A stretch of DNA of 63,514 bases, filler included, from Stramenopiles sp. TOSAG23-2 (lineage: Eukaryota), in assembly GCA_900128395.1 (NCBI GenBank). It is 8 parts of 8 records of this genome, joined end to end, with 100 filler letters (N's around TTAATTAATTAA, not from the genome) between each part and the next. Parts side by side here need not be neighbours in the genome. Positions count along the whole stretch, not along the records: positions 15,975 to 23,837 come from LT650266.1; 7 more parts are not named here. One strand, 5' to 3'. Below, piece by piece: positions 7,891 through 55,692 of the stretch. Below the pieces are notes generated by a model. The model was not told the DNA's origin, did no database searches, and was given only the letters and a program-made list of their open reading frames with translations. The position numbers and the translations under genes are program-made. Each line of letters opens with the position of its first letter. Within the stretch, counting starts at the first letter, position 1.

Positions 7891-7990
7891 NNNNNNNNNN
7901 NNNNNNNNNNNNNNNNNNNNNNNNNNNNNNNNNNTTAATTAATTAANNNNNNNNNNNNNNNNNNNNNNNNNNNNNNNNNNNNNNNNNNNN
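7891..7990. other. Artificial contig spacer
   Basis: N44-TTAATTAATTAA-N44 (stop codons in all six frames). Confidence 0.99.
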
Positions 7991-15874: not shown

Positions 15875-15974
15875 NNNNNNNNNNNNNNNNNNNNNNNNNN
15901 NNNNNNNNNNNNNNNNNNTTAATTAATTAANNNNNNNNNNNNNNNNNNNNNNNNNNNNNNNNNNNNNNNNNNNN
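15875..15974. other. Artificial contig spacer
   Basis: N44-TTAATTAATTAA-N44. Confidence 0.99.
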
Positions 15975-16327
15975 GTGCATTTGATGTTATCAATGTATTG
16001 TTAAAATATCAGAAATGAAGGACAACGTATATTTAGTATTTGTATAAACACGTGTGTGATTTGTCTACTTTATATATATATATATATATATATATCATTC
16101 CATGTTGCATAAGATTATATATCGTGTGTGTGAAATTTTGGCTCCCTTGAAACCAAAAGGATCTTTCTCATTTAAAAAAAATGTAAAAAAAAATACGTAA
16201 AGTAAAAAGCTAAAAGTATATATATATAGTCAATATTTTAGGAATAATTTTATTTAGTATAATATACCTTAAAATACAATAGACTCTGATGCTTCCTTTT
16301 TTTTTACCAACTCTTTTGAGAAGCAAT

Positions 16328-18073
16328 TCATGGTTCTTTGATACAATCATTCGGTTCATTTTTGCTTCCTCGGCATTCGCCACGACGAAATTGATGATAT
16401 GCATTTCTCCATTTCAACCACTTCGGGTATTTTTCATGGATCTGAAATAAAAGCGGCCCAGGTCCTTCTTCTTTAGCAGCAATTGGCAATGTCGTAAAAG
16501 TTGATTCATGTTTCATCGTTTCAAAATTTGAACTACGTAGAATAACACTTTGTGCTAATACCTTCCCAGCAAAAATAATTTCTTTCTCCTCTGTCTCCAA
16601 GAAATAATTCATTTTTTCTTGATGCATTTTTGCAACCAAATCGAATTCAGTGCAACTTACAACGATACAATCCGTTGGAACAGATTTGAGAAGTTGAATA
16701 AAAGTATCGAATGCGGCTGACGAAGAAGCTCCAGTACTTTTTATATCAATAATTGCTTTTTGACTGAGATTTTGAATTTTATCATCCAATTTCACGATAC
16801 CTGGAATTCGTCGGTATGGGCTCATCCCATCAATGTCACCAACAATTTTACTACCTAGCACCGCTACTGATGAAGTAATATGCCGTCGATAAATCTCGTC
16901 AGCAACGCACTGAATGATTGAAATAAACGTGCAATTGCTACCTTTCAACCACAATTGAATGTTCGTTTCGAGAACATGCAATGTATTGCATGCTAAGGCA
17001 ATGTAATCGACTTTTTTTGCCAAATCCTTTACAATCCTTTTAATTACAGGTAATAATTTTGTTTCCCGATCTTTCCAAGTGCTGAGTAAATGCGGCCCTC
17101 CAACTCTAGCATCACTCACCATTTCGAGTGAAATGGAGTCTCGATCACTAGGAAGTGTCCCACCAAAAAACTCACGCTGCGATTGAAAAATGAGGTCAGC
17201 CAAGTTCACACCAGCGCTTGGACCACTTCCTCCAATCACCCCAACCCACTTTTTTGGAATTTCTGACAATGACAATGCACGACAAAAATTTGAGTTATTC
17301 GAACGTGTGGCATGCACAAAGTAAACATTCTGGTACCATTCGCCGTCATCGCCTTTTACAATTCTTAGGTCATCTGGATTTTCAGCATTAAGGTGTTGGT
17401 AACACGCCAAAATATCACGATGTTTTTGACCAATTTTCAACTTCGCTGTCGATACAATTCTCCAGTTTTTACTACCAAAGGATTGATTAAGCATTCGTTG
17501 TGTCTCCTTCCAGGAAGATACAGACCTTCCAATCGTCAAAAGAGAGCCCCCAGGTCGAAGACGTGACCGACTTCCAGAAATCACCATGTCGAGGACGCTC
17601 CGGCCACCATCTGATGCATGGTACCATGCATGACATTTTCTTTCGTTGAGACCCTCAACAATTGGAGTCTGCGGTGGATTTGATACGATAAGATCAAAAC
17701 CATCATCATTTGATTTCTTTCCTTCATCAAATGCAGCAAAACCATCTGAAATCTTGGCCACAAGTCGAGAGTTACAATCTTTTAAATTCCATTTCCAATT
17801 TACATTTGTCAGCTGTATACAGCTAGGATCAACATCGTACGCATGACATTCTTGAAAACCTAGCCGCGCAAGTACCATCGCAATATGTCCATGTCCACAA
17901 CCCATATCTAGGCCAAACTTATTTGGAAGACCATTACGCTTTCTTTCCCCTACAATTTTAATCAATGGCTCAACAATTGCAAGTCCTAAGCTAGATGGCG
18001 GCGTTGCACTCGTGTCGGAAGTGACTTTCAATACAGTGCCACCTGGTAGAGGCGGTAATTTCAATGGCAACAT
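16328..18073 (-). CDS. Fusion of a class I SAM-dependent methyltransferase (HemK/MTS-like) and a PLP-independent Asp/Glu racemase
   Basis: Residues ~50-256 carry LDMGCGHG, AYDVD, FDLIVSNPPQTP, DGGRSVLD and LRPGG. Residues ~275-512 carry VGVIGGSGPSAG, IALACNTLH (Cys362), VAVLGS and IVVSCTEF (Cys474). Confidence 0.85.
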   Translation of the reverse strand: MLPLKLPPLPGGTVLKVTSDTSATPPSSLGLAIVEPLIKIVGERKRNGLPNKFGLDMGCGHGHIAMVLARLGFQECHAYDVDPSCIQLTNVNWKWNLKDCNSRLVAKISDGFAAFDEGKKSNDDGFDLIVSNPPQTPIVEGLNERKCHAWYHASDGGRSVLDMVISGSRSRLRPGGSLLTIGRSVSSWKETQRMLNQSFGSKNWRIVSTAKLKIGQKHRDILACYQHLNAENPDDLRIVKGDDGEWYQNVYFVHATRSNNSNFCRALSLSEIPKKWVGVIGGSGPSAGVNLADLIFQSQREFFGGTLPSDRDSISLEMVSDARVGGPHLLSTWKDRETKLLPVIKRIVKDLAKKVDYIALACNTLHVLETNIQLWLKGSNCTFISIIQCVADEIYRRHITSSVAVLGSKIVGDIDGMSPYRRIPGIVKLDDKIQNLSQKAIIDIKSTGASSSAAFDTFIQLLKSVPTDCIVVSCTEFDLVAKMHQEKMNYFLETEEKEIIFAGKVLAQSVILRSSNFETMKHESTFTTLPIAAKEEGPGPLLFQIHEKYPKWLKWRNAYHQFRRGECRGSKNEPNDCIKEP

Positions 18074-18560
18074 AAATCAATTACAAATTATTTGTGTCTT
18101 TGCAGTGATAGATATTGTTGCTTTGCTTTTCTATAATAGAACAATTGTATATGGTCTAGACAAAATACAAACGTATTAATACTTTCTGTATAATTGTGTG
18201 AATATAGTCGGTAAAGGGGAAAAAAGTGTAGTGTTCGCTCTTTTGTGTGTGACCGTATATAATAAATATTAATAATACTGTGGTACAGTACAGCTGAGCT
18301 ACTGGAAATTAGCAAAGTTTCGACCGGATCCACATACAAGAAAACAAGAAAACCTTTCTGCTTTATTATATAATAGCATCGCAATAGCACTACTGCAGCA
18401 GCCTTCCCGTGCGATAATATTAATATGCACACAAGTTGTGTATAATAATAACCCACAAAAGGGCCAAACATAAATATATATCTATACATATACGTGACAC
18501 CACTGTAAAAAATCAATCGACAAAAACAATATCCAATTTTAATATCAATAAAATAAGAAA

Positions 18561-18902
18561 ATGCTTTCAAAAGAAATAAAAAGCGCAATTCGTTGTTTCT
18601 ATCGAACAATTATAAAAAAGGGGCATGAAAATAATGAACCGATAAAATTAGGATATGTATCTAGTTTAAATCTAAAAACTTATGAATTATATGACTGGTC
18701 TTGTGATAATCCAGACTTTCCAGATTTTTTTAGCGGCGGATCCAATGGTAAATACAATTCATTACGCGATACATTAATTTTATTATCAAAACAATCTGAA
18801 GGACAAGATGACATTAATGATTTAAGATCAGTCACTGCTGGAATTCGTAATGATTTGTATAAATCAAAACCTCCAAAATTAAATAAGAAATTTATTACCT
18901 AA
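18561..18902 (+). CDS. Short hypothetical ORF or gene fragment
   Basis: 113 aa with protein-like composition; no family recognised. Confidence 0.35.
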   Translation: MLSKEIKSAIRCFYRTIIKKGHENNEPIKLGYVSSLNLKTYELYDWSCDNPDFPDFFSGGSNGKYNSLRDTLILLSKQSEGQDDINDLRSVTAGIRNDLYKSKPPKLNKKFIT

Positions 18903-19324
18903 AGTATTATGATTATGTGTTTTTAAATCTCTGTAGACTCGTCATTGAATTGATGGGTTGTACAGTTGTACACAGAGGTTATATATTTTTGCTCTGGTTG
19001 GTATGGTGGATTTTCCATTAATTATATTTAAAATTTAACTTAACTTTAAGATTTTAGTTAATATTATGATATGTGATGATGGGTTGTTTATTTTTTTAAA
19101 TTTTTACTCGAGACATCTGATTTTTAATTTCTACACACTTCTCCAAATGTACCTAGGTATCATACCGTAATATATATGCTTATAAATTATTATAACTTCA
19201 AGATTTTAACGATACATTTATATGATTAAATATGTACGAGTTACGTACAATAATTGTTCACCATACTGCAATTTATTATGTACACACTGTATAATATATA
19301 AATTTTACACACGCATATGATACT

Positions 19325-19400
19325 ACATTTTGCTTTAAACTGCTGCTGCTGCACCTTCCTTATTTAATAAAATAACTTTGTTTAGTCCAGGTCCAGGCAA
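19325..19400 (-). repeat. Degenerate copy of the 3' end of the sulfatase gene
   Basis: acattttgctttaaactgctgctgctgcaccttccttatt...ccaggtccagg parallels 19544-19607. Confidence 0.75.
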
Positions 19401-19541
19401 AATACCAAAATTAAAACTTGATATTCAGGCACACTATAAAAGCGTATAATATATATATATATACTCAGGCAGGTTTGATCGTTCCAAAAACCTCAGGCTG
19501 ATATGATACCCTTCGCTCCACAAACAAACCTCAGGCATCGA

Positions 19542-21062
19542 TCACATTTTGCTTAATACTGCCGCTGCTGCTGCAGCTGCACCTTCCTTATTAATGCCAG
19601 GTCCAGGTTCAGGTGCAGGAAAAATTTTTGGACGTATTTCACCTATTCGCTCCATTTCATTTGACAACATGGTACCCAACATTTTTCGAATATCAACAAG
19701 TTCTGGTTTGCAAACGAGATTTACTAATTGATTTGGATCTGTATCATTGTCATAAAGAAAATCTTCCACATACGATTCTGATCCTATTGGTGGAGGATGA
19801 TCCCGTAATTTGCGCCACCGTTTCCCTTTTGAATCAAATCTCCATGGACTCCCAGGTATACGGACACTATATGTCCATCGAGCTGTTCGTATCATTCGAC
19901 CAACTTGACTTTCACTAATTTGTGCAAGATGCCCGCTACGCCATGGCTGAAAATTTGACGTGTTGTTGTTAGCATTTAACTCTTGCAATGGTCTGCCATG
20001 CCAATCAGGTGGAATTGGAATATTTGCTGCACGTAGCAAAGTAGCTGATACATCTGTAAGGGAAACAAGATCATGGCTTACGAAACCAGGGGTAAAATTT
20101 GACAAACCTCGTATTACTAGAGGAATTCGAATAGAGGAATCATGGCAACTACGTTTGTAATGTGCATTCCTTGTTCTAAAATGGCATCCGTGATCTGATG
20201 CAAATATAACTACCGTATCCTCTGCAAGCCCAAGTGTATCAAGGTGTTCCAAGACACGGCCTAGGGAATGATCTAAATGGTGAACACATGCAAGATAATT
20301 GGCATAATGTTTCTTTGAATCACCACCAAGCGCACGCAAATCACCAGGCAACTCTGCATCTTTAAACTTCCCCGCCAAACCGTTCGGTGGCTCATATTCA
20401 TTTGTGTCGTTCTGATGATGCGGCTCTAGAAAGGATAAAAAAAGAAACCATGGTGCTGCTTCTTCTTCTTCCTCATTACCTGAGTTGTTGCTAAAATTTG
20501 TCATCATCTCCAAGAACTTATCTGTCATATAATCAACACGATGTGTATCTTTGCCAAATTCATGCTTCTTCATACTTTCATCAAAAAGAAAGCCCCCATA
20601 CCCATGGCTTGTGAATTCCAATGCATCTGCTGCAAGCCATCCATCGGCAAATCCACCTCTTCTACTTGGTGGTACCGCTTTGATATGGTATGGACTTGCC
20701 CAAGAAGAGGCTAAATGCCATTTACCAACGTATCCACAACGATATCCAGCAGAACTTAATTCTTTTGCCGTTGTTGCGGTGTCTTCAGGTAAATATATAT
20801 TATTGATATGCACCCCGGTTGTTGTTGGATAACGTCCACTGACTAATGCAGACCGAGCTGGGCCACATACTGGATTTGGTGTATATGCATTATTGCAACG
20901 TATTCCTGATGCAGCTAGTTGATCTAAATTAGGCGTGGTGGACGGACAATTAATTACGTTCGTTTGCCCATAACAAGATGCAGAATCAGCACGTTGTTGA
21001 TCCGTGAAAAATACAAGTAAATTTGGACGACGGCGTTTTGTGGTTGGGACATGCGTTTCCAT
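19542..21062 (-). CDS. Formylglycine-dependent sulfatase (S1 family), bacterial-like, no evident signal peptide
   Basis: RPNLLVFFTDQQR, CGPARSALVSG (CxPxR), GYVGKWHL, EPH, FASDHG, SIRIPLVI and LYD...DPNQLVNL. Confidence 0.93.
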   Translation of the reverse strand: METHVPTTKRRRPNLLVFFTDQQRADSASCYGQTNVINCPSTTPNLDQLAASGIRCNNAYTPNPVCGPARSALVSGRYPTTTGVHINNIYLPEDTATTAKELSSAGYRCGYVGKWHLASSWASPYHIKAVPPSRRGGFADGWLAADALEFTSHGYGGFLFDESMKKHEFGKDTHRVDYMTDKFLEMMTNFSNNSGNEEEEEAAPWFLFLSFLEPHHQNDTNEYEPPNGLAGKFKDAELPGDLRALGGDSKKHYANYLACVHHLDHSLGRVLEHLDTLGLAEDTVVIFASDHGCHFRTRNAHYKRSCHDSSIRIPLVIRGLSNFTPGFVSHDLVSLTDVSATLLRAANIPIPPDWHGRPLQELNANNNTSNFQPWRSGHLAQISESQVGRMIRTARWTYSVRIPGSPWRFDSKGKRWRKLRDHPPPIGSESYVEDFLYDNDTDPNQLVNLVCKPELVDIRKMLGTMLSNEMERIGEIRPKIFPAPEPGPGINKEGAAAAAAAVLSKM

Positions 21063-21470
21063 GATATTGTGTAAAAATAGATGTATTATCGATATGTATA
21101 TATATATGTATGTTTTCTTTGATATTATTCTATATCTATATATATGTCATGTATACCACATCAATGATTATATATTATTATTTTTTATATTAATAGAGGA
21201 GTATTTATTAATAAATAGTCATCACTTTTTTGGTTAAGGTTTAAAAAAGTGTAATTTGTGGTTTTGGACCGGAACCCCGACTCGAACCATCTTTGTAAGG
21301 CTATTTGCATACTATGATATAATTAATATGGACACAGCACTAATGTCAATTGAACCAACTAAAGTAATCTATTCCGAAATGAGAAACTCAATCTATAACG
21401 ATTGAAGTTTCTAGCTTAAGTTTGAACGCTCCTCAGGCGATTCATCTTTTTTATTTATTGTTATCAAAAA

Positions 21471-22640
21471 CTATGCGAGTTGGTAAATGTTCAAACTATG
21501 AACGAAACATGATAGTAATGCATGATGCTTGTTACAAAAGTGGTGTTTCAAATGGTAGAAAAGACCCCTTTTTGTGTTACTAACAACAGCATTTGCTTCA
21601 CACAGCTTACACTCATATTTCCCTGACAGTGCTTTGGTTGCACATACCAAAGAGTTAATGCCATTTGTAAAAGAGGATACAATTTTATTTTTCATTTCAT
21701 TGTCAATGATTTCATTCATTATTAGATCATGCTTATATACTTTGCAAAGGTACATACCAGTTTTCACATCAATTTGCTTAACTTGCACAGTTTCTTTGTA
21801 CAACAATTTGCAAATCCAACAATACTGATATTTGAAGTGCTTTAGCTTAACATAATCCATTTGACAATTCAATACCAGACCTTTGTTATTTACACATTCT
21901 ACACAGTATGTCAAACTTGATTTCTCATTGTATTTGTATTTTTTCCAATGTTCCTCAAGGGTAGTAGTACAAGCAACACACATATTTGAATTATATGTTA
22001 TTTTTTTTGAAATTAAACTTGTTACCTGATGCTGGTCATTTCTTAATTTACATAATGTATCTTGAATATTAAATTCCCTAAACACTATGTTTTCCACATA
22101 TGTTCCAAGTCCTTTGAACCACATAACACGTTTCTTCCTGTGTTTACCATTTTGTTGAATGAAGGCAAAATGAGCTAAAAAAACTTTCAGAATTTTGATT
22201 TTCCTGGATTTGCTCATACCCTTCTTTTGGTGTTGATTTAACATTATAATAGGCATTTTTTCACCTTCCCAGCCACATGTACAACCTTTTGGATGTTGTA
22301 ATTTTTTATATTCTTGAAAAGTACAGAAAATGGTTTTTGAATCTACTACATCATTAGTGCAAATATCAATTTGGTCATAAATTTTTGAAAGTTGTTCAGG
22401 AATCTCATCTACATTCATAATATCCTGAATATCATCAACAATATTGTTTGCAAAAGGACTCTCTGTTTCTTTTATATTCAGCAATTTGCACAATTTGCTC
22501 CTTAGATCACCCAGTGTTTCCTTTGAAACTGTTTCAGCTATGTTTTGTAAATTGAAACTGACAAGACCTGTTTCATACTTCCCTTCTAAATTACTTATGA
22601 ACCTTGTTGAGAGAGATACACCTGTATTGCCTGAACTTTG
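21471..22640 (-). CDS. Cys-rich orphan ORF (several CxxC motifs), start-less; probably mobile-element or viral derived
   Basis: The frame stays open upstream of the annotated TTG to about 22640. It contains CVAC, CVEC, CWIC, CKLC and HFCNKHH, and is almost CpG-free. Confidence 0.55.
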   Translation of the reverse strand, partial: QSSGNTGVSLSTRFISNLEGKYETGLVSFNLQNIAETVSKETLGDLRSKLCKLLNIKETESPFANNIVDDIQDIMNVDEIPEQLSKIYDQIDICTNDVVDSKTIFCTFQEYKKLQHPKGCTCGWEGEKMPIIMLNQHQKKGMSKSRKIKILKVFLAHFAFIQQNGKHRKKRVMWFKGLGTYVENIVFREFNIQDTLCKLRNDQHQVTSLISKKITYNSNMCVACTTTLEEHWKKYKYNEKSSLTYCVECVNNKGLVLNCQMDYVKLKHFKYQYCWICKLLYKETVQVKQIDVKTGMYLCKVYKHDLIMNEIIDNEMKNKIVSSFTNGINSLVCATKALSGKYECKLCEANAVVSNTKRGLFYHLKHHFCNKHHALLSCFVHSLNIYQLA

Positions 22641-22927
22641 ACCAAGGACATAGTGTCTACAATCAACAGAATGAAGTTGAAGAAAAAATTAAAAAATTAT
22701 TTGCTGAATTGAAGGCTAGCGGTCGTAGTAAAGTAACACAAACATTACATGAATGTATATATAATGAGAGTGATTCATTATTGCCAACAGATATCCCATT
22801 CCCGATGTATGGAATTAAAAGTTCACAATGTTGTGAATCTACAAATAGTGCACAGAAAAGATTTGGAGAAAAATTTGGGAATGGTTTTCATGCTCTAAGA
22901 GCAGGAGCAAGGGCACCATCTTGGTAA
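22637..22927 (+). mobile_element. Possible Mutator-like (MULE) transposase fragment
   Basis: MYGIKSSQCCESTNSAQK resembles the YG.xTSN.xES.NS motif around the catalytic Glu of MULE DDE transposases; this rests on one motif. Confidence 0.4.
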
Positions 22928-23401
22928 GTAAAACAAACAAACAAAAAAACAAAAGAAATCGTTAGAAACAATACTATATTCAGGGGAAATATAATATATA
23001 TACATCTACCTTATATTATATACATATATATATATATATCATAATCCATCGTGTTTGTGAATAATCTTGTGATTTCATAATATATATACATTCAGTGAGA
23101 AGGTATTTTAAAGATATAATAAATATTATATTAAATAAATCATCTTTCAAGATTATAATATATATATATTTTGAAATAATAATTATGAAAAAAGGTTTTT
23201 TAAATATGCAAATGTGTATGCAATGACTTAAGCATCACAAGGAATGTGTTCAATAATCGTTATAGCACAAACTCTTCTTATGTTAGTGTAACAAGTAGGT
23301 TAATTATTATATTACAGGCTAGAAAAAATAGATTTTGTGAAAGTTGAAAATTATTTTCATTTTAAAATAGTAACGATATTCCATTACCATATTTTCAGTC
23401 A

Positions 23402-23617
23402 TTGTTGTTATTACCAGGTGTTTTAGTTTTATATTATAATAAACGACGTTTTTTCAAAGAATATGTTGGAACATGGCCATTTTCTATGCTATGTGGAATT
23501 GGCGGGTTTTTATTTGCATTAGATTATCTACACGATGCATATTACGTTTATTTCATGTTTAATCTTGTGATATTTTTAAAAAATAGTTGTTATGTATTTA
23601 GAAAGAGGGGTGTGTAA
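23402..23617 (+). CDS. Possible last exon of a small membrane protein
   Basis: Hydrophobic ORF followed by the TACG-rich 3' flank seen after real genes in this window. Confidence 0.3.
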   Translation: MLLLPGVLVLYYNKRRFFKEYVGTWPFSMLCGIGGFLFALDYLHDAYYVYFMFNLVIFLKNSCYVFRKRGV

Positions 23618-23837
23618 AATGAAAAGTGAAAAAAGAGTGTGTGTGCTGTTTAAAAACACATACATGATGCGTGGTGGTAAAAACTCGTGTAATTAAAAAA
23701 GAAATTTTTTATCAGAGTGTACATAATTTTTTACGAATATAAAAGGTACGTATTTTTTTTTTTTAACACAAAAGTACCCGCCCACGATGTGTTTGGTATT
23801 ATTCTACGCGTACCTGTAAACGCTCTCCCCCCCCCCC

Positions 23838-23937
23838 NNNNNNNNNNNNNNNNNNNNNNNNNNNNNNNNNNNNNNNNNNNNTTAATTAATTAANNNNNNN
23901 NNNNNNNNNNNNNNNNNNNNNNNNNNNNNNNNNNNNN
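23838..23937. other. Artificial contig spacer
   Basis: N44-TTAATTAATTAA-N44. Confidence 0.99.
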
Positions 23938-31797: not shown

Positions 31798-31897
31798 NNN
31801 NNNNNNNNNNNNNNNNNNNNNNNNNNNNNNNNNNNNNNNNNTTAATTAATTAANNNNNNNNNNNNNNNNNNNNNNNNNNNNNNNNNNNNNNNNNNNN
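31798..31897. other. Artificial contig spacer
   Basis: N44-TTAATTAATTAA-N44. Confidence 0.99.
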
Positions 31898-39733: not shown

Positions 39734-39833
39734 NNNNNNNNNNNNNNNNNNNNNNNNNNNNNNNNNNNNNNNNNNNNTTAATTAATTAANNNNNNNNNNN
39801 NNNNNNNNNNNNNNNNNNNNNNNNNNNNNNNNN
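39734..39833. other. Artificial contig spacer
   Basis: N44-TTAATTAATTAA-N44. Confidence 0.99.
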
Positions 39834-47665: not shown

Positions 47666-47765
47666 NNNNNNNNNNNNNNNNNNNNNNNNNNNNNNNNNNN
47701 NNNNNNNNNTTAATTAATTAANNNNNNNNNNNNNNNNNNNNNNNNNNNNNNNNNNNNNNNNNNNN
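47666..47765. other. Artificial contig spacer
   Basis: N44-TTAATTAATTAA-N44. Confidence 0.99.
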
Positions 47766-55592: not shown

Positions 55593-55692
55593 NNNNNNNN
55601 NNNNNNNNNNNNNNNNNNNNNNNNNNNNNNNNNNNNTTAATTAATTAANNNNNNNNNNNNNNNNNNNNNNNNNNNNNNNNNNNNNNNNNNNN
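55593..55692. other. Artificial contig spacer
   Basis: N44-TTAATTAATTAA-N44. Confidence 0.99.

Follow-up and report, generated by a model that had tools for sequence, protein, structure and literature searches.

A fused methyltransferase and aspartate-type racemase from a marine protist: a candidate enzyme for N-methylated D-amino acids

Among marine organisms, both free D-amino acids and N-methylated forms of them have been found. An N-P-P motif is typical of amino-group methyltransferases, and the MTQ2/RsmC-type methyltransferases are, to our knowledge, thought to modify only proteins and RNA. Here we describe a gene that joins a relative of that methyltransferase group to an aspartate-type racemase: it occupies positions 16328..18073, on the minus strand, of a 63,514-nucleotide stretch of DNA from Stramenopiles sp. 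TOSAG23-2 (GenBank assembly GCA_900128395.1), which at its full length we call the window. The locus proves to be genuine and expressed: it fuses two enzymes of known kinds in a rare combination, and one of the two belongs to an undescribed methyltransferase family. On the methyltransferase side, the accessible part of one source cites D-aspartate N-methylation in animals as an enzyme activity and names no gene for it (PMC12162812), and our literature search found nothing on a gene for aspartate N-methylation. On the racemase side, CuyB is described, in the accessible part of its source, as a PF01177 member that racemises cysteate (PMC11193023).

The gene is a single open reading frame (ORF) with an ATG start, a TGA stop and zero internal stops. 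The chance of a random open frame of 581 codons at the base composition of the window is about 4e-20, and the GC content is 0.41 in the ORF versus about 0.28-0.39 in 2-kb windows. A preliminary description, made from the sequence by itself, had proposed an intronless fusion of a methyltransferase and an Asp/Glu racemase as a one-protein pathway to a methylated D-amino acid. Its 581-amino-acid (aa) ORF is borne out, with the minus strand as a detail that it had not given, and the motifs lie exactly where it had placed them (LDMGCGHG at 55-62, YDVD at 79-82, NPPQ at 132-135, GVIGGSGP at 278-285, ACNT at 361-364 and SCTE at 473-476). The gene and its product comprise the following features, including those of a methyltransferase dependent on S-adenosylmethionine (SAM) and of a racemase independent of pyridoxal phosphate (PLP):

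16328..18073, minus strand: complete coding sequence, 581 aa plus TGA (16328..16330), single exon
17303..18073, minus strand: SAM-dependent methyltransferase domain, aa 1-257, with an MTS/HemK2-RsmC-like core and a family-specific C-terminal strand-helix-strand
17888..17911, minus strand: SAM motif I, LDMGCGHG, aa 55-62; G58, G60 and G62 invariant or nearly so in 34 family sequences
17828..17839, minus strand: motif II, YDVD, aa 79-82; Asp80 invariant
17663..17680, minus strand: motif IV, NPPQTP, aa 132-137; N132, P134 and P137 invariant, P133 at least 90 % conserved
17588..17611, minus strand: DGGRSVLD, aa 155-162; G157 and R158 invariant, D162 at least 90 % conserved
17252..17302, minus strand: inter-domain linker between the domain limits, 17 residues, aa 258-274 (SNNSNFCRALSLSEIPK); collinear with the linker of the relative P0063
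16514..17251, minus strand: PLP-independent aspartate-type racemase domain, aa 275-520
17090..17101, minus strand: GGPH, aa 325-328, in place of the (I/V)P(D/S)R of the aspartate racemase 1JFL and of true CuyB
16988..16990, minus strand: predicted catalytic Cys362 (ACNT), aligned with Cys82 of 1JFL, invariant in 53 sequences
16739..16741, minus strand: Lys445 (IKSTG), aligned with Lys164 of 1JFL, at least 90 % conserved in the family
16652..16654, minus strand: predicted catalytic Cys474 (SCTE), aligned with Cys194 of 1JFL, invariant in 53 sequences
16331..16513, minus strand: C-terminal tail, aa 521-581, without a family match

To place the gene among independent data we aligned contigs from four runs of four studies to 15975..19500; such contigs show neither expression level nor true RNA ends. 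A polyA metatranscriptome (X12) supplied the longest view of the gene:

16324..18137, minus strand: transcript-like contig, from 64 nucleotides (nt) 5' of the ATG to 4 nt past the stop

This contig is 1817 nt long, with six differences to the window, zero gaps and zero joints. A contig from a second RNA study (X16) spans 17213..17591 and one from an independent seawater metagenome (X4) spans 16433..17744. All three cross the domain junction at nt 17252..17302, so that the join between the two halves, where the preliminary description had seen the risk of a chimera, is covered by both RNA and DNA. No spliced joints are reported inside the ORF, and a public protein collection contains a second full-length version of the protein (P0002; 581 aa, 99 % identical, three substitutions, no frameshift). 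Because a gap-free polyA contig and independent RNA and DNA contigs cross the junction, the fusion is not a chimera: it is genuine and lies in one unspliced transcript found in RNA libraries.

The architecture is rare but not unique. An HMMER search over 1.84 billion representative proteins returned 402 matches at E <= 1e-3, and among the best 150 of these, 63 cover the N-half only, 85 the C-half only, one is a fragment of the C-terminal tail and a single protein, P0063 (519 aa), spans both domains; the 252 further matches could include more examples. P0063 has the same two domains in the same order, which contradicts the initial impression of a new architecture. BLASTP aligns it with the fusion protein in one collinear segment that runs through the linker (aa 15-481 versus 11-472, 23 % identity, E 7e-20), and it shares a G-x-G-x-G-H variant of motif I with the methyltransferase clade of the fusion protein. 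We read the two proteins as probable descendants of one old fusion kept over a long divergence. Approximately unbiased (AU) tests are compatible with this: a common origin of the two racemase halves is not rejected (p 0.48), and for the methyltransferase halves it is favoured, since the tree constrained to unite them exceeds the one from the free quick search by 16.6 log-likelihood units (p 0.73). Two fusions of independent origin, at which the racemase tree had hinted, were considered and set aside, since the AU tests do not reject a single clade.

Other searches returned little of this kind. A word-indexed full-length search found only the 99 % identical P0002, one match among 7999 scored candidates. 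Searching the N-domain against shorter proteins gave 15 weak generic matches, auto-named release-factor methyltransferase, and a family-alignment search of proteins of 595-2000 aa gave one unrelated HemK-like protein without NPP (P0168). From the ESM Atlas came nothing but generic clusters, named "methyltransferase family" and "Asp/Glu racemase family", and a phrase search of the literature found no publication on a racemase/methyltransferase fusion. The last 90 aa of the protein have no Pfam match, and the C-terminal tail matches only near-identical copies of itself (P0003, a fragment, is 98 % identical).

The N-terminal domain is a SAM-dependent methyltransferase of class I whose cofactor motifs are intact. 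Pfam MTS (PF05175) matches aa 54-202 with 39.7 bits (E 5.1e-10), above its cut-off of 23. We aligned the 63 methyltransferase-type matches of the exhaustive HMMER search together with P0063 and the fusion protein, and found that they form a coherent family of ~240-aa proteins. In a 34-row alignment G58, G60, G62, D80, N96, N132, P133, P134, P137, G157, R158 and D162 are invariant or near-invariant. Motif IV of the family reads N-P-P-x-x-P: across 64 family rows its fourth position is mostly T, V, Q, A, S or L, with F or Y in a few. The family segment W..(A/G)G.DGR.(V/L)LD resembles N6AMT1, and alignment to that protein identifies DGGRSVLD as the G-R...D motif common to MTQ2/N6AMT1 (GRNGREVMD). 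The family also possesses a C-terminal extension of its own, R-I-(F/Y)...G.W(Y/F)...(Y/F).(I/V).A. A family hidden Markov model (HMM) scores members at 150-280 bits and the fusion protein at 222 bits over aa 11-261, while PrmC/PrmB-like genes reach at most 112 bits and only over the core. In the methyltransferase tree the fusion protein sits in a six-row clade with 97 % support in the Shimodaira-Hasegawa-like approximate likelihood-ratio test (SH-aLRT).

The two domains were folded separately; MAFFT --auto places racemase rows on the methyltransferase half. The AlphaFold2 model of aa 1-262 (predicted local distance difference test, pLDDT, 92; predicted template modelling score, pTM, 0.91) displays two additions, a beta-hairpin at the N-terminus and ~55 residues of strand-helix-strand at the C-terminus. 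It is most similar to N6AMT1/KMT9 (Z 22.2, root-mean-square deviation 2.3, 199 aligned residues), PrmC (Z 21.0), MJ0882 (20.9), RsmC (20.4), RlmG (20.3) and TrmM (19.7), with Asc-Orf2, a small-molecule carbamoyl N-methyltransferase, at 17.9 and MmtN, a Met S-methyltransferase, at 16.6. The top matches lie within ~2 Z units of each other and all methylate nitrogen. Foldseek gives N6AMT1 a TM score of 0.80 on the target, and a profile of the domain searched against the PDB finds MJ0882 at 94.9 bits, N6AMT1 at 61 and PrmC at 60.8. A complex prediction of the N- and C-domains without alignments scored 0.00, which counts neither way for contact between them.

The top NCBIfam models for the N-domain are the archaeal MTQ2-like PRK14968 and PrmC, and the curated cut-offs are missed: 43.3 versus 162 bits for PRK14968, 30.4 versus 199.1 for PrmC (TIGR03534) and 21.4 versus 87 for HemK2/MTQ2 (TIGR00537). 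The domain is therefore a relative of those families and not a member. The N-terminal helical domain of PrmC is absent, as PrmC aligns only from residue 73 (by structure) or 100 (by profile). We conclude that the N-domain lies in an undescribed family off the MTQ2/HemK-RsmC/MJ0882 group of nitrogen methyltransferases, which has kept N-P-P and lost the aromatic fourth residue. The preliminary description had likened it to the HemK/PrmC-like enzymes that methylate nitrogen, and this stands in part: the domain belongs with the HemK/MTQ2/RsmC group, and its nearest solved relatives methylate nitrogen, but the curated cut-offs are missed and NPPQ lacks the aromatic residue of the [DNS]PP[YFW] motif of HemK, PrmC and MTQ2. 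Nor does NPPQ serve as a signature, since Q135 is not conserved in a family whose motif is N-P-P-x-x-P. As Q135 is not a family feature, the suggestion of S-methylation from an "xxPQ" motif shared with Met S-methyltransferases is without basis.

The C-terminal domain appears, by profile and by predicted fold, to be a PLP-independent two-cysteine racemase of the aspartate-racemase branch. Pfam Asp_Glu_race (PF01177) matches aa 280-488 with 38.8 bits (E 1.1e-9), above its cut-off of 31. A profile of 53 racemase sequences searched against the PDB finds 5b19 at 88 bits, 1jfl at 85, 2zsk at 78, McyF at 77 and 3s7z at 76; E-values against Asp racemases range from 1e-15 to 6e-24, and glutamate racemases score at most 36 bits. 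The AlphaFold2 model (pLDDT 93.9) has the two-domain alpha/beta racemase fold and shows the same order of similarity: the putative Salmonella Asp racemase 3s81 comes first (Z 25.4), then 1jfl (24.6) and 5hra (23.3), each over 217-222 residues. Aspartate racemases overall lie at Z 20.2-25.4, glutamate racemases at 17.7 or less, a hydantoin racemase at 15.5 and a maleate isomerase at 14.6.

The domain differs from the classical enzymes in two motifs. It carries GGSGP where they have GGMGP, and the column of Arg48 in 1JFL is occupied by Pro327, followed by His328. We take Arg48 and Lys164 of 1JFL to hold the side-chain carboxylate of the substrate; GGPH in place of the Arg loop suggests that the side-chain pocket is altered relative to the known Asp and cysteate racemases. 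The NCBIfam "amino acid racemase" model (TIGR00035, asp_race) scores 29.7 bits against a cut-off of 93.1. CuyB (NF052483, an equivalog model) is the top curated model for the domain, with 64.8 bits against a cut-off of 190, and it gives relatives of the racemase 63-99 bits, ahead of TIGR00035. L096, a true CuyB at 266 bits, has the classical GGMGP and VPSR, and in the tree it lies outside the 65-row clade to which the fusion protein belongs. Given these different motifs and branching, CuyB is only the nearest curated model. Within that clade the fusion protein falls in a 23-row group (SH-aLRT 95) marked by GGP(H/R) and mostly unannotated, with P0009 as its sister; for this tree 19 of the 85 racemase-type matches were dropped before alignment (fragments and partial matches), and P0014, P0117 and L101 before tree building. 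Because the TIGR00035 and CuyB cut-offs are missed and the Arg is absent, aspartate is plausible as the substrate and not demonstrated. The original assignment of a PLP-independent Asp/Glu racemase is thus narrowed: profile and fold uphold an aspartate-type two-cysteine enzyme, whereas the curated cut-offs and the Arg48 equivalent are lacking.

A further CuyB-like racemase match (149 bits) was seen at the end of a 531-aa open frame in a genome contig (L098:691-2283, G102). The first 260 residues of that frame are Gly/Ala/Arg-rich, and it is probably an over-extended frame in GC-rich DNA and not a fusion.

What might such a protein do? In the mechanism we propose, the racemase domain would use Cys362 and Cys474 to bring a small acidic amino acid into equilibrium between its L and D forms, and the N-domain would transfer a methyl group from SAM to the nitrogen of the same free amino acid. 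Methylation would pull the equilibrium toward the methylated D-product, so that one polypeptide could yield an N-methyl-D-amino acid such as N-methyl-D-aspartate (NMDA). Aspartate would be the leading candidate substrate, and racemisation and methylation could come in either order. Judged from comparison of sequences, coupled racemisation and N-methylation of one free small acidic amino acid is the account we prefer, tentatively and at somewhat less than an even chance. Its specific form, in which a single polypeptide of a widespread marine protist would turn L-aspartate into NMDA, we regard as unlikely on present evidence. The same doubtful standing applies to the joint claim that the N-domain would found a family of free-amino-acid N-methyltransferases, evolved from MTQ2/RsmC-type macromolecule enzymes and repeatedly fused to aspartate-handling enzymes. 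Both the identity of the product, be it NMDA or an amide-methylated D-Asn/Gln, and a role for it as an osmolyte, signal or deterrent are speculation. The methylated D-amino acid pathway of the preliminary description accordingly remains plausible but unproven; its motif argument and its supposition of uniqueness were wrong in detail.

The main support for a shared small-molecule substrate comes from the partners to which relatives of the two domains are fused; these favour a racemisation and an N-methylation that act together on one free acidic amino acid. We scanned 20 of the 150 listed matches with Pfam, mainly long ones, and some with NCBIfam. In P0127 (787 aa) an N-P-P-x-x-P methyltransferase precedes a Lyase_1/FumaraseC domain, which scores 500.5 bits against a cut-off of 510 for aspartate ammonia-lyase (NF008909), 441 for aspA and 373.5 for fumC; its methyltransferase forms a 100 %-supported clade with P0086 and P0125. 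Among the racemases, the partner is a type I asparaginase in P0037 and P0083 and a YbaK-type aminoacyl-tRNA-editing domain, placed ahead of the racemase, in P0109 and P0123. P0117 has the order opposite to that of the fusion protein: its racemase comes first, and a class I methyltransferase of an unrelated kind comes after it (Methyltransf_31, 36.9 bits). This would mean, on circumstantial evidence, that aspartate-making enzymes have been fused to each of the two families, and that a racemase has also been paired with a non-homologous methyltransferase. Each of these cases consists of one or two unannotated predicted proteins, and merged calls of adjacent genes could lie behind them, in which case the adjacency itself would be informative.

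Several other observations were made on these relatives. The standalone sisters P0086 and P0125 have a ~60-residue insertion in the C-terminal hairpin, and P0041, P0077 and P0095 have long extensions without a Pfam match. Placing the racemase of P0117 in the clade of the fusion protein was considered and is unsupported by the tree; an EgtD-like identity for its methyltransferase is marginal (PF10017, 24.6 versus 23 bits; TIGR03438, 21 versus 291) and serves as a lead only.

Genome neighbourhoods added few family members. In the genome-contig scan, 79 of 80 loci were PrmC/PrmB-like (at most 112 bits to the family HMM, core only). The remaining locus bears the one family-like methyltransferase found in reference genomes, distant, at 155 bits in a metagenome-assembled genome of Solirubrobacterales (L001, 4804-7699). 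It lies in divergent orientation beside genes for a GCS2-type carboxylate-amine ligase and for an iron enzyme of haem-oxygenase-like type, and the locus may be a small biosynthetic cluster. The metagenome scan gave 15 loci and no true member of the methyltransferase family. At E <= 1e-35 the family profile found none in 400 genomes of one class (that of G002) and none in 351 of one phylum (that of G003), in searches run without a positive-control genome, and tblastn of P0086 against plasmids returned one weak partial match.

Some of the evidence weighs against coupled action on a free amino acid. The characterised close relatives of the N-domain all act on macromolecules (protein Gln/Lys, rRNA, tRNA), and Asc-Orf2, the nearest small-molecule N-methyltransferase, stands lower among the structural matches (Z 17.9). 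Both domains miss all curated NCBIfam cut-offs, the C-domain has Pro327-His328 where 1JFL and true CuyB have Arg, and the asparaginase fusions P0037 and P0083 lie in the other racemase clade. The aspartase link comes from a single representative protein, P0127, where two neighbouring genes may have been called as one, and the activity assigned to either sub-family is drawn from comparison.

Foremost among the alternatives is a methyltransferase that modifies a macromolecule (protein Gln/Lys, rRNA or tRNA), the racemase fusion serving co-expression or regulation. We consider this unlikely, if a little less so than the other alternatives. The nearest structures and profiles are all of that kind (N6AMT1/KMT9, PrmC, MJ0882, RsmC, RlmG, TrmM and PrmA), the best NCBIfam models, PRK14968 (archaeal MTQ2-like) and PrmC, agree with them, and the family HMM still gives PrmC-like genes about 90-112 bits. 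However, motif IV lacks the aromatic residue of NPP[YFW], at a position that varies freely in the family, the N-terminal domain of PrmC is missing, and the aspartase-like fusion of P0127, together with a racemase fusion kept at 23 % identity, would be hard to explain for an enzyme of translation factors or rRNA.

It is also possible, though rather improbable, that the two domains act on a sulfonated or other acidic amino acid such as cysteate, giving an N-methylated D-sulfonate or feeding a pathway related to D-cysteinolate. Sulfatases cleave sulfate esters, not sulfonates, and one eukaryotic neighbour is weak evidence, so the fact that the nearest linked gene encodes a sulfatase lends this idea little. 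More to the point, CuyB is the best NCBIfam model for the C-domain and its relatives, the altered GGPH motif suggests a changed side-chain pocket, and the organism is marine: D-cysteinolate is an abundant marine osmolyte whose biosynthetic pathway is given as unknown in the accessible part of its source (PMC12814064). The scores nevertheless fall far under the CuyB cut-off of 190, and the true CuyB L096 has GGMGP and VPSR like 1JFL and sits outside the 65-row clade of the fusion protein.

The domains could instead cooperate on a free amino acid with the methyl group going to oxygen or sulfur, which would produce a methyl ester or a sulfonium compound. The non-aromatic fourth residue of motif IV would allow this, and MmtN and several O- and C-methyltransferases are among the structural matches; yet N132, P133 and P134 are conserved and N-methyltransferases match at Z 20-22 versus 16.6 for MmtN, and we think it improbable.

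An artefact is scarcely credible, be it a chimera made in assembly, a contaminating contig of bacterial origin among the single-cell data or a dead gene. In its favour, the window is strung from short contigs of a fragmentary assembly and both domain families are known mainly from prokaryotes. Against it, the junction is crossed or the ORF covered by independent contigs from four runs, each of a different study (by the polyA-RNA contig nearly end to end), the full-length 99 % identical variant has only three substitutions, every catalytic motif is intact, the long flanks differ from bacterial DNA in being rich in AT and in bearing repeats, and the methyltransferase family was not found among the 751 bacterial genomes searched without a positive-control genome.

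The window consists of ~7.9-kb contigs strung together, largest first. Linkers of the form N44-TTAATTAATTAA-N44 lie at 7891-7990, 15875-15974, 23838-23937, 31798-31897, 39734-39833, 47666-47765 and 55593-55692. Gene order across them is therefore meaningless, and only 15975..23837 is physically linked to the fusion gene:

15975..23837, no strand: contig bearing the fusion gene, flanked by N44-TTAATTAATTAA-N44 linkers
19542..21062, minus strand: sulfatase, a linked neighbour with the C-terminal region SGSH_C (sulfamidase-type)
21471..22493, minus strand: 340-aa ORF without assignment, a linked neighbour

The linked sulfatase has no evident functional tie to the fusion gene. On its upstream side, the fusion gene has a small ORF of 113 aa (18561..18902, plus strand) without a Pfam match; RNA-library contigs of two runs overlap the region of this ORF (X12, 18621-18847; X17, 18546-18738), which may represent either a short transcript running divergently or a piece of an untranslated region. 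In the X4 seawater metagenome, 67 nt at 18232-18300 are swapped for 31 other letters and 55 nt at 16193-16249 for one letter. Both are indel polymorphisms, located in flanks rich in AT, and the ORF is intact.

Proteins that by their sequence appear plainly eukaryotic are encoded on further contigs of this assembly: BEACH/WD40, polycystin channel, F-box/ankyrin, PX and OSR1-type kinase proteins. The stretch is present in public runs from 13 studies, labelled as marine or seawater metagenomes and metatranscriptomes; six of the runs are RNA, several of them polyA-selected. The eukaryotic proteins on the sister contigs and the marine labels of the runs support the terms "protist" and "marine", and the fusion protein is probably a cytosolic two-domain enzyme of an uncultured marine protist.

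A fused racemase and methyltransferase in open-ocean RNA libraries is a directly clonable candidate for D-amino-acid N-methylation, and could define a new small-molecule N-methyltransferase family within a group thought to be restricted to protein and RNA. If NMDA were the product, the gene would offer a sequence handle on biological NMDA synthesis and point to a planktonic source of an NMDA-receptor agonist. Were the substrate a sulfonate such as cysteate, the gene would be relevant to the unexplained source of marine osmolytes with D configuration; and if the methyltransferase proved to be a protein or RNA enzyme, the finding would shrink to an odd domain fusion of modest interest.

Set beside the known systems, the N-domain is closest in structure to MTQ2/HemK2/N6AMT1 (KMT9), which methylates glutamine N5 of eRF1 and histone lysine. 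The two have motif I, N-P-P and the W..GG..GR.V.D segment in common, whereas the N-domain lacks an aromatic residue after NPP and has the extra N-terminal hairpin and C-terminal extension; the substrates of N6AMT1 are proteins. MJ0882, RsmC and RlmG (MTS-domain rRNA guanine-N2 methyltransferases) and PrmC/HemK follow at Z 20.3-21.0. Of these MJ0882 is the best PDB profile match and resembles the N-domain in its N-terminal hairpin and "Q/S..G" segment, but it lacks the C-terminal extension of the family. PrmC has an N-terminal helical domain that the N-domain does not, and the substrates of this set are rRNA or release factors. The aspartate racemases (P. horikoshii 1JFL/2DX7, Salmonella 3S81, P. 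torridus 5B19, E. coli L-Asp/Glu racemase 5HRA and McyF 5WXY) have the same fold as the C-domain, in which the equivalents of Cys82, Cys194 and Lys164 are present; the fusion protein differs in having GGSGP and not GGMGP, and GGPH and not IPDR, and in belonging to a separate clade of 23 sequences. CuyB of Bilophila wadsworthia, as far as the accessible part of its source describes it (PMC11193023), shares the superfamily and the two-cysteine mechanism, and its model is the one that the fusion protein matches at 64.8 bits against the cut-off of 190. The animal "NMDA synthase", a D-aspartate N-methyltransferase activity, would carry out the same reaction as that proposed for the N-domain. Both domains together, in the order found here, recur in P0063, an unannotated predicted protein.

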